Assembly (NCBI GenBank): GCA_965285935.1
Contig: OZ260662.1
Span: 63,302,001 to 63,366,000 of the forward strand
Reading direction: 5' to 3'
Origin: Ophelia neglecta
Lineage: Eukaryota
DNA: 64,000 bases
Shown here in pieces: positions 23,557 to 60,015 of this stretch. The first letter of the stretch is position 1. Every line of letters starts with the position of its first letter. The translations under genes and the position numbers were made by a program. The notes beneath the pieces were generated by a model. That model was given only the letters and a program-made list of their open reading frames with translations, was not told the origin of the DNA and did no database searches.

Positions 23557-23743
23557 TCCAAGGGCCAAATTCAGTTTATATACAAATATACAGTAAATGT
23601 ACATGCACTTTAAATATAATAATTGCTTTGTCAGGGACCCATAATTAATTAATGGACCTCTGAAGTAATATAAATGTACATGTGCATATACTGTCCATGT
23701 ATTTTTTTATTGCCAAGTAAAGTCTTACTTTTTTCTATTTAAG

Positions 23744-24390
23744 ATGAGCCAGAAGATAACTATGAGCAGTTTGATGATAATCATGACAGTGAGAGTGATT
23801 CTCTGGAGGTGACGGAGCCATCCTCCAGTCCTGCCCACAGACTCTCCATACTTGGGCTCCATGAAAACCAGTTAAGAGGCCACCTTCATCATAGAGATCA
23901 GCCTAGCGACCGGCCCCGTGGAGACCGGCCCTATGGAGACCAGCCCTATGTAGACCAGCCCTATGGAGAAACTGGGCCACCCCTGGTTAACCATAGGGAC
24001 CAGCCCTATGGAGACCAGCCCTATGGAGACAGTGGTCCACCCCTGGCTAACCATAGGGACCAGTCCTATGAACACCAGCCATATGGAGACACTAGGCCAC
24101 CCCTGGCTAACCCTAGGGACCAGCCCTATGGTCACATTCAACCACCCCTTGCTAACCATAGGGACCAGCCCTATACAGACACTCGGCCACCCCTGGCTAG
24201 CCCTAGGGATCATCCGCCCATCTACATTCCCGAGGACATTCCCATTCCAGAGGAGTTTGAACTTCGAGAATCGTCTGTGATGGATAGCCTTGGAGTCTGG
24301 ACCAAGGTGATCATCCCAGATGGGAGAAAGTTTGGCCCCTTCCAAGGAGTACTCAAACCCATAGTAGCTGACCCGTCCTCTGCCTGGGAG
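23744..24390 (+). CDS. PRDM16: Internal coding exon (equivalent to exon 2) of a Prdm3/16 family PR/SET-domain zinc-finger transcription factor (MECOM/MDS1-EVI1, PRDM16, hamlet ortholog); encodes acidic N-terminal region, repeat insert and first part of the PR domain
   Basis: Translation ends IYIPEDIPIPEEFELRESSVMDSLGVWTKVIIPDGRKFGPFQGVLKPIVADPSSAWE. This closely matches the PRDM16/MECOM PR-domain start as I recall it (YIP(E/D)DIPIPx(D/E)FELRES..LG(V/I)W.K....G.KFGP....KDPSYGWE). The acceptor is cttacttttttctatttaAG (AG 23742-23743), with an in-frame TAA directly upstream (23740-23742). The donor is GAG|GTAGGT at 24391. Length is 647 nt = 2 nt + 215 codons (phase 1 start, phase 0 end), the same phases as vertebrate exon 2. 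PRDM3 vs PRDM16 cannot be distinguished; in an invertebrate this is likely the single pro-ortholog. Confidence 0.93.
23896..24219 (+). repeat. In-frame coding tandem repeat (15-nt GACCAGCCCTATGGA modules assembled into 45- and 60-nt units)
   Basis: Protein contains nine [D/H][Q/R][P/S]Y[G/V/E/T] pentapeptides and five PPL[V/A][N/S][H/P]R modules. DNA repeats are GACCAGCCCTATGGAGAC and CCACCCCTGGCTAACCATAGGGAC. Confidence 0.95.
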
Positions 24391-25929
24391 GTAGGTTTAA
24401 GTCATTTAATAACACTGACTAAGCTAGGACAGATGCAAGCTAGGACATTGCATGATACTACCTCTTTAATATTTGTATATATTAAAGTGATATTTCTACA
24501 TGGAAGTTTACTTCTTTTCTGTCTTTTTTGCATTGAATAAAATGTCTGAAAATGTTCAAGCAGAACTGTAGTTTACCTATTAAAGCCCTCTGAATTTATC
24601 TGTTGATATATCAGGCCACATGGGCCGGTAATATGTACCTTATTTTACCAGCCATTGCATCCCTCCACTGGATTGGATGATGATTTTTTATTACAAATTG
24701 CTAGGTATCTTGTGTCATGTGCTTGTTGTTTTGCCCTGTCTTGTCATTCTGGATGAAGGATCAAGCCTATGATATGTGTCTCTCCCCTCCAGTCTATTAT
24801 CTTCTTAAACAGACAAGAGATATCTGATATTGTGTTGCAATTGAATTTCACCTGTGGGGAGACCACCCACACTGTAATGCCTTTTTGGCAATACTCACTT
24901 TGGGGTAAAATTCAAAATCAACATCTAATAAGCATCATTTTAAAGAGCTTACTATCTTTGTCCTGGCAGTTTTGGTTATCTATTGATGTTTGATGGTTGG
25001 AAGGACATGTCTGGGGTTCATCAGCACTGTACATCAGGGCATATGCCTTCAGGCAATTTGTTCTTTTCTACCTGGATGATGTTAAGCTTTAGACCCGACC
25101 ACTGCTGCACAATAGGAGAAGATAGGGACCTGAGCTGTCAAATGATCACCGCTGTCCTTCCCTCCCCTCTCTGACATCACCATGTTTGCTTTATAGCCAG
25201 CTTATAAACTTGAATATGGCGGGATCTCAACCATTGTCAGAGACCAGCCGATTAACTATAATTCCGAATTTGGCTGAATACAATTCTATATTTTATGAGG
25301 CTATGGAATCACAATAACTTTTCATCTATTTCAGATGCTTATGTACATGTGATATTTCAGTACATCTTGTAGCTACTATTGACCCTAGGCCTTTTGTTAG
25401 AAAGCTGAAAAACCTTCGGAATATTCACCTCTCTAATAAACTTCCGTGTATGGATTAAATGGTTATTAAATCACAAAGTTTTTAATTCTTATGTTTATGA
25501 GGCACTAATGGTTGTGAGTGAGCCCTTTTAATGTCACATATAAAAGAAAGATTCACAATAGGACAGGAAGCCTGGAGATGCATCATTGAATTTGTAGGGA
25601 ATTATGAATGATTAGGTTGAGTGAAGAGGAAAAGTGGTGGGATCTCAAACATGACTATCATCATTATGACGTGATGTTTACAAGTGTCACAGTTTCATCT
25701 TGTGTGTTTGTTCACACGCTGGTACTGGTCATATATTTATAAAACCTTGTATTCTCGCTTGGTGTAATCCTGAAGTTGATCTTTTACACCTCAATTGTTT
25801 ATGAATAATTAAGAATTCTACATCATCATGTAGGTAACTTCTTCTTTCTTCAAACTACCTAGTTTTTATATATAAATTAAAATATATATGAATTTAAAAC
25901 ATGTATACACAGAAGCACTGTATACATTG

Positions 25930-27370
25930 GAAATGGGTAAATCACTTACAGGGCAGGAGACAATAAGTATAAAACCCTTACAGGGCAAGAAGAGATGGGT
26001 AAAACCATTACAGGGCAAGAGAAAATGGATAAAACCCTTACCAGGCAGGGGGAGATGAGTATAAAAACCTTATATGACAGGAGATGGGTAAACCCTTTCA
26101 GGGCAAGAGGAGATGGAAAAAACCCTTACAGGGCAGGAGGAGATGGCTAAAACCCTAACTGGGAAGGGGGAGATGAGTTTTTTAACTTATATGACAGGAG
26201 ATTGGTAAACCCTTTCAGGGCAGGAGGAGATGGGTAAATGGTGACGGGTAAATTTTTAAGGGGCAGGAGAAGATGGGTAAATCATTACTAGGCAAGAGAA
26301 AATTGGTAAAACCCTGACAGTGCAGGAGGATATGGGTGTAAAACCCTTCAATGGCAGGAGGAGATGGGTAAAACCCTTATAGGTCAGGAGGATATCAGCA
26401 AAACGTTTTAGGGCAGGAGGGGAGGAATATAAAAAACCCTTACAGGGCAGGAGGAGATGGATATAAAACCCTGACAGGGCAGAAGGAGAGGAATATAAAA
26501 CCCTTATAGGGCAGGAGGAGAGGAATATAAAACCCTTATTTGGGCAGGAGGAGAGGAATATAAAACCCTTATAGGGCAGGAGGAGAGGAATATAAAACCC
26601 TTATAGGGCAGGAGGAGAGGAATATAAAACCCTTATAGGACAGGAGGAGAGGAATATAAAACCCTTATAGGGCAGGAGGAGAGGAATATAAAACCCTTAT
26701 TTGGGCAGGAGGAGAGGAATATAAAACCCTTATAGGACAGGAGGAGAGGAATATAAAACCCTTATAGGACAGGAGGAGAGGAATATAAAACCCTTATAGG
26801 GCAGGAGGAAATGGGTATAAAACCCTTACAGGGCAGGAGGAGAGAAATATAATACCCTTACAAGGCAGGAGGAGATGGGTATAAAACCCTTACAGGGCTG
26901 GGAGAGATGGGTAAAACCCTTATAGGTCAGGAGGATAAGGGCACAACCATTCAGGGCAGAAGGATATTGGCACAAAAACCCTTACAGGGCAGAGGAGACA
27001 GGTATAAATCCCTTACAGGGCAGGAGGAGATGGTTAAACCATAACAGTACAGGAGGGTATGGGTGTAAAACCCTTCAAGGGCAGGAAGAGATGGGTAAAA
27101 CGCTTACAGGGCAGGAAGATATGGGCACAACCTTTCAGGGCAGGAGGATATTGGTATAAAAACCCTTACAGGGCAGGGGAGACGGGTATAAAACCCTTCA
27201 GAGCAGGGGGAGATGGGTATGAATACCCTTATAGGGAGGTATATCCTTACAGGGCAGGAGGAGAGGACAGGAGGGTCTGGGTATAAAACCCTTACAGTGC
27301 AGGAGGAGAGGGCAGGAGCATATGGGTATAAAACCCTTACACGCCCTTATAGGGCAGGAGGAGATGAGCA
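25930..27370. repeat. ~32-bp purine-rich minisatellite, about 45 copies
   Basis: Homogeneous core unit ATAAAACCCTTATAGGGCAGGAGGAGAGGAAT (~26490-26810). Diverged flanking units are like GGGTATAAAACCCTTACAGGGCAGGAGGAGAT. Confidence 0.97.
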
Positions 27371-29023: not shown

Positions 29024-29213
29024 CACCTGTACCCCTCTACCCCTGTACATCTGTACACCAGTATCCCTGTGCACCTATACACCTGTATCCCTGTACACCT
29101 ATACACCTTTACACCGGTAAACCTGTACCCCTTTACACCTGTTTACCTGTAATAACTAGTGTGTAAGTTATACTTGTACAAATGTACACCTGTACACCTG
29201 TACACCTGTACAC
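29024..29213. repeat. Imperfect 8-bp (TACACCTG)n repeat
   Basis: Degenerate TACACCTG/TACCCCTG/TATCCCTG units; three perfect copies at 29185-29208. Confidence 0.85.
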
Positions 29214-58849: not shown

Positions 58850-60015
58850 GAGGCTATCCCTAGTTACTGGAGGTCAGTGAGTCTCTGGGTCAGATCTGAA
58901 GGTCTGTCCCTAGGTCCGATCTGGAAGGCTGTCCCTAGATCTTAGTTGGAGGTCAGTGAGTCGCTGGGTCTAATCTGGGGGTCTGTTCCTGGCTCTGATC
59001 CGAGAGACTGTCTCTGGGTCAGATCTGAAGGTCTGTCCCTAGGTCTGATCTGGAAGGCTGTCCCTAGATCTTATTTGGAGGTCAGTGAGTCCCTGGGTCT
59101 AATCTGGGGGTTTGTCCCTGGGTCTGATCTGGGGGTCTGTGAGTCCCTGAATCTGATCTGGAAGGTTGTCCCTGCGTCTGATCTATGGGTTTGTCCCTGG
59201 GTCTGATCTGGGGGTCAGTGAGTCCCTGGGTCTGATCTGGGGGTCTGTCCCTGGATCTGATCTGAGGGTCTGTCCTTGGGTCTGATCTGGGGGTCTGTCC
59301 CTGGATCTGATCTGAGGGTCTGTCCTTGGGTCTGATCTGGGGGTCTGTCCCTGGATCTGATCTGAGGGTCTGTCCTTTGGTCTGATCTGGGGGTCTGTCC
59401 CTGGATCTGATCTGAGGGTCTCTCCTTGGGTCTGATCTGGGGGTCTGTCCTTGGGTCTGATCTGGGGGTCTGTCCTTGGGTCTGATCTGGGGGTCTGCCC
59501 TTGGTTCTGATCTAAAGGTCAGTGAGTCCCTGGGTCTGATCTGGGGGTCTGTCCTTGGGTCTGATGTGAAGGTTTTTCCCTGGGTCTGATCTGGGGGTCT
59601 GTCCTTGGGTCTGATCTAAAGGTCAGTGAGTCCATGGGTCTGATCTGGGGGTCTGTCCTTGGGTCTGATCTGGGGGTCTGTGAGTCCCTGGGTCTGATCT
59701 GGGGGTCTGTCCTTGGGTCTGATCTAAAGGTCAGTGAGTACCTGGGTCTGATCTGGGGGTCTGTCCTTGGGTCTGATCTGGGGGTCTGTCCTTGGGTCTG
59801 ATCTGGGGGTCTGTCCTTGGGTCTGATCTAAAGGTCAGTGAGTCCATGGGTCTGATCTGGGGGTCTGTCCTTGGGTCTGATCTGGGGGTCTGTGAGTCCC
59901 TGGGTCTGATCTGGGGGTCTGTCGATCCCTGGGTCTGATCTAAAGGTCAGTGAGTCCCTGGGTCTGATCTGGGGGTCTGTCCTTGGGTCTGATGTGGAGG
60001 GTTGTCCCTGGGTCT
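58850..60015. repeat. 25/29-bp G-rich minisatellite, about 44 copies
   Basis: Units GGGTCTGATCTGGGGGTCTGTCCTT (25 bp) are interspersed with GGGTCTGATCTAAAGGTCAGTGAGTCCCT (29 bp). A 129-bp duplication lies at the 5' edge (58882 vs 59011). Confidence 0.97.

Follow-up and report, generated by a model that had tools for sequence, protein, structure and literature searches.

An in-frame tandem repeat before the PR domain of Prdm3/16 in Ophelia neglecta

The window, a 64,000-nucleotide stretch of contig OZ260662.1 of Ophelia neglecta, contains exon 2 of a Prdm3/16 gene at 23744..24390 on the plus strand (647 nt, 215 whole codons open). The exon is preceded by a T-rich splice acceptor in phase 1 (23721..23743, plus strand; AG at 23742-23743, with T at 13 of the 20 positions that precede the last three bases) and followed by a donor GT in phase 0 at 24391-24392. 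The acceptor phase equals the donor phase of exon 1, ~1.37 kb upstream of the window (L018:8627-8663), and the donor phase fits exon 3 (L014:3627). Exon 1 reads MRSKPKARKLTQ, with R2, K4 and K9 kept. Three segments of the plus strand make up exon 2: a non-repeated, acidic, Ser/His-rich linker part of 50 aa (23746..23895), a coding minisatellite (23896..24219) and the first 58 aa of the PR (SET-like) domain (24217..24390). The array lies in the same open frame as the exon, just before the PR domain, as described in the first-pass annotation. Exon-sized frames of relatives stop at the same point as exon 2, between WE and V, and exons 3 and 4, past the window end and 43 kb downstream, complete the PR domain in phase. 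The annotation had also stated that vertebrate exon 2 is about half as long, and it does comprise ~112-116 codons, assuming the same junctions. Based on this arrangement, we infer that the array is retained in mature mRNA and translated. Two short motifs lie near the array. EPSSSPA, in the non-repeated linker (23815-23835), resembles EPSSPA/EPCSPA similarly placed in vertebrate MECOM and may be a conserved Ser-Pro site. HPPIY, at the array end (24214-24225), has HPPVY or QPPVY as its equivalent in Lingula, Owenia, bivalves and Ptychodera; at the PR edge it reads as a PPxY motif.

The assignment to Prdm3/16 is supported by the PR match, the finger clusters, the N-terminal peptide and a quick tree. 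The PR start matches PRDM16 (2n1i, E 2.4e-10) and MECOM (6xau, E 6.3e-10), with PRDM5 next at E 0.002, and is 69% identical to Lingula and 71% identical to Owenia. Both C2H2 clusters, of EVI1 type, lie downstream, 30 kb past the window end, and are 74% and 65% identical to Lingula PRDM16. One plus four fingers were located in the first cluster and three in the last, the exons between L016 and L017 being incompletely resolved; the first cluster of vertebrates has seven. Beyond the PR exons come an exon with a finger and then a 749-codon frame (L017:360-2600, or L003:499-2661), which encodes four first-cluster fingers, the PFDLS and PLDLS motifs, which we take to be CtBP-binding, and the last three fingers. 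A preceding finger of the mollusc type (YKCDECP-type in Haliotis and Liolophura) was not found in L014-L017; it is also missing from the gene models of Capitella, Owenia, Lineus and Lingula. The quick tree, built on 33 rows that were all Prdm3/16 with no outgroup of other Prdm proteins, groups the gene with Capitella, Platynereis and Paralvinella (SH-aLRT 92, unstarred).

The final 58 codons of exon 2 have a single occurrence in the genome, and Prdm3/16 is present in one copy. Prdm3/16 duplications have been reported in gnathostomes and arthropods (PMC4760075), so a single gene is expected in lophotrochozoans. The gene shares with its family the MRSK..ARKL N-terminus, the PR domain split at WE/V, the two finger clusters, the PFDLS and PLDLS motifs and the single copy. 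It differs in a linker of 170 aa rather than ~70, which carries a Tyr-bearing repeat, and in the 5 + 3 fingers found. Elsewhere in the assembly (G000), tandem C2H2 genes are numerous on C1, C9 and C34; one group of hits on C34 appears three times with equal scores, pointing to a recent triplication or an assembly duplicate.

The array comprises 108 codons built from 15-nt modules, which are grouped into 45- and 60-nt units. From 23908 the module register is AAAABC AABC AABC ABC ABC, then DHPP, where the five-residue consensus is DQPYG for A, DTGPP for B and LANHR for C. Our recount gave the same numbers as the initial description of ~108 codons with nine DQPYG-like and five PPLANHR-like motifs ([DH][QR][PS]Y, 9; PPL[AV][NS][HP]R, 5). 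The nine Tyr are spaced at 5 or 15 residues, with no other spacing. Nucleotide autocorrelation of the array is 0.50 at lag 45, where the maximum in 2000 codon shuffles is 0.39, and 0.58 at lag 60, where the maximum in another 2000 is 0.40. Thus, the periodicity exceeds chance. Tandem Repeats Finder (TRF) reports periods of 15, 45 and 60 with 0% indels. There are no in-frame stops within the array; its minus strand is also open and a second plus frame has one stop, so an open frame alone is no evidence of coding. The residue composition (n = 108) is Pro 24, Asp 14, Gln 10, Arg 10, Gly 9 and Tyr 9. This corrects the label Tyr/Pro/Gln-rich: Pro, Asp and charge characterise the array more than Gln does. 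An 18-base core word of the array occurs twice in the genome, both times inside the array, and origin from a dispersed repeat or transposon was rejected on this basis.

Read data came from three runs (X1, X2 and X3) of one sample, none recorded as RNA. Their contigs span introns too, so the runs behave as DNA. Overlapping contigs cover the entire array in 3/3 runs; the cover is by overlaps, with the whole array in no single contig. In each run a 468-base contig covers 23967-24434 with 0-3 differences. A 61-base contig, found in all three runs of the one sample, links 23996 back to 23923 across a single intervening letter. It marks a variable 75-nt block (23923..23997, plus strand; 25 codons, 3 Tyr) of which a second form carries at least one extra tandem copy; the extra copy is in frame and adds 25 residues and 3 Tyr. 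An X2 contig is identical to the window form over 23897-23957. Thus, two or more array lengths occur within the one sample, which bears out the earlier suggestion of length polymorphism. In X1 read depth agrees with a single extra copy carried by one haplotype (26.5 + 14.2 versus 40.6 seen); X2 fits one extra unit loosely (15.4 versus 12.3) and X3 does not fit it (40-48 versus 63.1), so the longer form is taken to have at least one extra copy. An apparent joint going back 60 was rejected as a variant: it arises from a stretch ending at 23997, and the 468-base contigs run straight through 23967-24434. Where runs differ by a single base, the cause may be that a different side of a bubble was retained. 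The read contigs also contain a 6-base insertion in intron 1 at 23684 and a second haplotype of intron 2 (24405-24544), with six substitutions and a 1-base loss within 140 bases, indicating high heterozygosity.

For comparison with relatives we used 232 stored proteins; the PR start is matched by 148, and in 129 of these it is preceded by 45 residues or more. Vertebrates make up most of the set. Among the named annelids the exon is present in Owenia alone; models from Capitella, Paralvinella and Platynereis are without it and not comparable. The motifs [DH][QR]PY and PPL[AV]N were found in 0 of the 129 PR-bearing relatives. From Met1 to the PR domain the linker is 170 aa in this gene and 66 aa without the array. 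Relatives have linkers of 44-110 aa with a median of 70 (based on 45 of 50 proteins starting MR[SC]K; five were dropped as the motif was not found); the named invertebrates measure 70 (Lingula), 71 (Owenia), 57-58 (two scallops), 44 (oyster) and 52 (Ptychodera). The linker's Tyr fraction, 6.4%, is exceeded by only 2/129 relatives. The array was initially called lineage-specific. Its absence from the 129 relatives, among which Owenia represents the named annelids, agrees with this.

Unrelated expansions occur at the same site in other proteins of the set. P0162, P0231 and P0232, of a likely gastropod lineage with a more diverged PR start, have a stretch with a 10-aa period directly before the PR start (z 7.8-9.3, compared with 8.6 for the window). 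Like the array, it is a tandem repeat at that site; unlike the array, it is KGDNS-type, Tyr-poor and unrelated in sequence. In P0147 and P0160 (Plakobranchus and Elysia gene models, unverified) the linker before the PR domain has 320-330 residues with poly-Q runs, and the P0133 linker contains poly-H/P runs. The pre-PR linker of Prdm3/16 thus appears to have expanded independently in other lineages, on gene models that are partly unverified. In the protein search (111 hits), 9 repeat-only matches are unrelated repeat proteins. P0002, P0124, P0161, P0192-4, P0213, P0222, P0224 and P0229, which match only the repeat, were set aside as unrelated low-complexity proteins.

Selection on residues was evaluated from the differences between array copies and the module consensus, which comprise 5 silent and 22 replacement changes (silent sites 0.23; pN/pS 1.3, p = 0.66), or 5 and 19 when each change is counted once. 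An omega of 0.3 or below is rejected (P at most 0.003), and 0.5 is borderline (P 0.03-0.06). Within the A modules D, P and Y are each altered in 1/10, and Tyr is no better kept than its neighbours. The copy differences are as expected without selection on residues. This test uses 27 changes in non-independent copies and is blind to selection on composition, spacing and total length; sticker arrays are often kept via selection on just these properties. Of four read variants in the PR part, a small number, three are silent and the other one replaces I by V.

The array was compared with other minisatellites, which number 16 arrays in the 182 kb around the gene, the coding array included. Six of the 15 others have a period divisible by three, so the multiple-of-three argument is weak here. 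Likewise, 0% indels are reported for five of the 15 others (assumed non-coding, upstream genes unchecked), and their lack is not special to the coding array. Long minisatellites lie in introns and upstream (281-1303, 25938-27341, 29024-29213 and 58881-60015 of the window, and in L018, L020 and L024), with periods of 37, 30/32/45, 8/16, 25/54, 58, 78 and 33. All units of the array do keep the frame (periods 15, 45 and 60 and the 75-nt block), as first described. The contrast drawn there with nearby intronic arrays of 37, 32 and 25/29 bp was selective, for TRF also lists intronic arrays of period 30, 45, 24, 12 and 18. Frame-preserving selection, proposed on that basis, applies by default to every coding repeat (PMC1273636); the residues themselves bear no sign of selection.

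Coding repeats generally have in-frame units, and repeat-number polymorphism in coding sequence is reported for ~1 in 20 human proteins (PMC1273636). The array shares with the coding VNTRs described there its in-frame units, copy-number variation and a protein-binding host protein. It differs in that its units are long, imperfect and two-level (15 nt inside 45, 60 or 75 nt), whereas variable human VNTRs are mostly short and perfect (PMC1273636).

The array is predicted to be disordered (FoldIndex -0.36), as is the non-repeated linker part (FoldIndex -0.37, modelled without secondary structure). The AlphaFold model gives the array a pLDDT of about 47-56 and no secondary structure; no relative aligns, so low pLDDT would be expected regardless. 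These predictions agree with the disordered segment proposed at first. The further description as prion-like is not supported: charged residues make up 24% of the segment, its net charge is negative and its contents of Q+N, G+S and Pro are 13%, 12% and 22%. Its best 60-mer has a PLAAC-like score of 1.3 (using approximate frequency tables), compared with 1.4 for the zinc-finger exon of the same gene and 35.5 for a control QQPYG-repeat protein. The SS18 QPGY domain and the FET domains are likewise disordered, rich in Gln, Pro and Gly with spaced Tyr, and part of chromatin regulators, and in SS18 Tyr drives phase separation in tests that changed 19-21 Tyr (PMC9117659). In contrast, the array has far more charge, fewer Tyr and no sign of Tyr conservation; the searched protein contained no SS18/FET Pfam family and gave no sequence match to them. 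The array's likeness to SS18 QPGY seems to be one of wording only.

We consider it probable that the array is a tolerated in-frame minisatellite, made by local tandem duplication, in a predicted disordered tether that joins the PR domain to an N-terminal peptide likely to bind NuRD. In human PRDM3/16 the N-terminus binds RBBP4 of NuRD via R2, K4 and K9 (PMC6379669). These residues are kept in exon 1, so the worm peptide likely binds RBBP4/NuRD and the array would, only in the long isoform, lengthen the tether from this anchor to the PR domain. Slippage or unequal exchange would have multiplied the 15-nt module and then the 45-, 60- and 75-nt blocks. Frameshifts would be purged, since the long isoform would lose its PR domain and every zinc finger, and only multiples of three would survive. 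The result would be a tether of ~170 or 195 residues in place of ~66, and the repeat sequence itself would have little specific function. Tolerance is supported by the copy differences, by the return of the linker to 66 aa, close to the median of 70, on removal of the array, by the expansion of the same linker in other lineages and by the richness of the neighbourhood in minisatellites. The 15-nt module matches its two flanks at 8/15 and 6/15 bases, which is only suggestive of a local origin. What counts against tolerance is the sticker-like pattern of nine Tyr at strict spacing together with ten Arg; a long-lived array would also argue for function.

That pattern is the basis of a different explanation, which we regard as unlikely: the array would be a newly gained multivalent Tyr/Arg sticker, similar to SS18 QPGY or FET domains, that aids self-association of the PR isoform or cofactor recruitment, with copy number tuning its strength. 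The nine Tyr (12 with the extra unit), their 5/15 spacing, the ten Arg, the predicted disorder and a Tyr fraction rarely reached among relatives all fit, as does the QPYG wording near that of SS18 QPGY, where Tyr drives phase separation. The charge and composition of the segment, a PLAAC-like score no higher than that of the gene's own finger exon, the 19-21 Tyr that had to be changed in SS18 tests (PMC9117659), the lack of excess Tyr conservation and the absence of an SS18/FET match weigh against it. The fuller claim that a young, length-variable minisatellite gave the PR isoform such a domain between its NuRD-binding tip and the PR domain, so that 9- and 12-Tyr alleles would differ in self-association or cofactor recruitment, is quite unlikely. 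Length itself might instead be selected, a longer tether altering the reach between NuRD and the PR domain or DNA-bound fingers, with sequence irrelevant. The array does sit exactly between an RBBP4-type motif (PMC6379669) and the PR start, multiplying the distance ~2.6-fold, and a pure spacer is expected to show neutral-looking substitutions, but linkers of relatives vary from 44 to 110 aa without pattern and a 25-residue difference exists within a single sample, so that we find this improbable.

Neutral substitution would equally follow if the array were rarely in protein, either removed through internal splice sites or bypassed by a dominant PR-less isoform starting downstream. A weak phase-0 donor-like site is present at 23809, and human PRDM3/16 normally have PR-less isoforms too (PMC6379669). 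Against this, in-frame AGs in the array (phase-1 AGs were tabulated) have only 2-5 T in the preceding 20 bases, compared with 13 at the true acceptor; past 23755 in-frame AGs have at most 7, and no T-rich tract lies in the array. Exon 1, both boundaries of exon 2 and the entire PR domain are intact and in phase, and every unit length and the variant block keep the frame. We therefore hold the chance of such removal to be small. An assembly artefact, which the first-pass annotation had put forward as a possible refutation, is extremely unlikely. The three runs are of one sample, which may be the assembly source, and they span the array by overlaps; nonetheless, they cover it fully in 3/3 runs with 0-3 differences in the 468-base contigs, the array copies differ mutually at many sites, and the reads, if anything, show a longer form.

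We found no literature on a repeat at this site or on MECOM/PRDM16 condensates, in a search that covered few subscription journals. The array is new for the Prdm3/16 family as sampled, and a coding VNTR in a disordered transcription-factor linker is of a known kind. As a tolerated minisatellite, the most likely reading, it is tidy but unremarkable. It identifies the linker before the PR domain of Prdm3/16 as a place where independent expansions are tolerated, and it offers a length marker within Prdm3/16. If the sticker reading were true, a conserved developmental regulator would here be seen in the act of gaining a condensate-type domain, and if the Tyr array is functional, two natural alleles 25 residues apart would provide a test of how a low-complexity domain originates in a conserved chromatin regulator.
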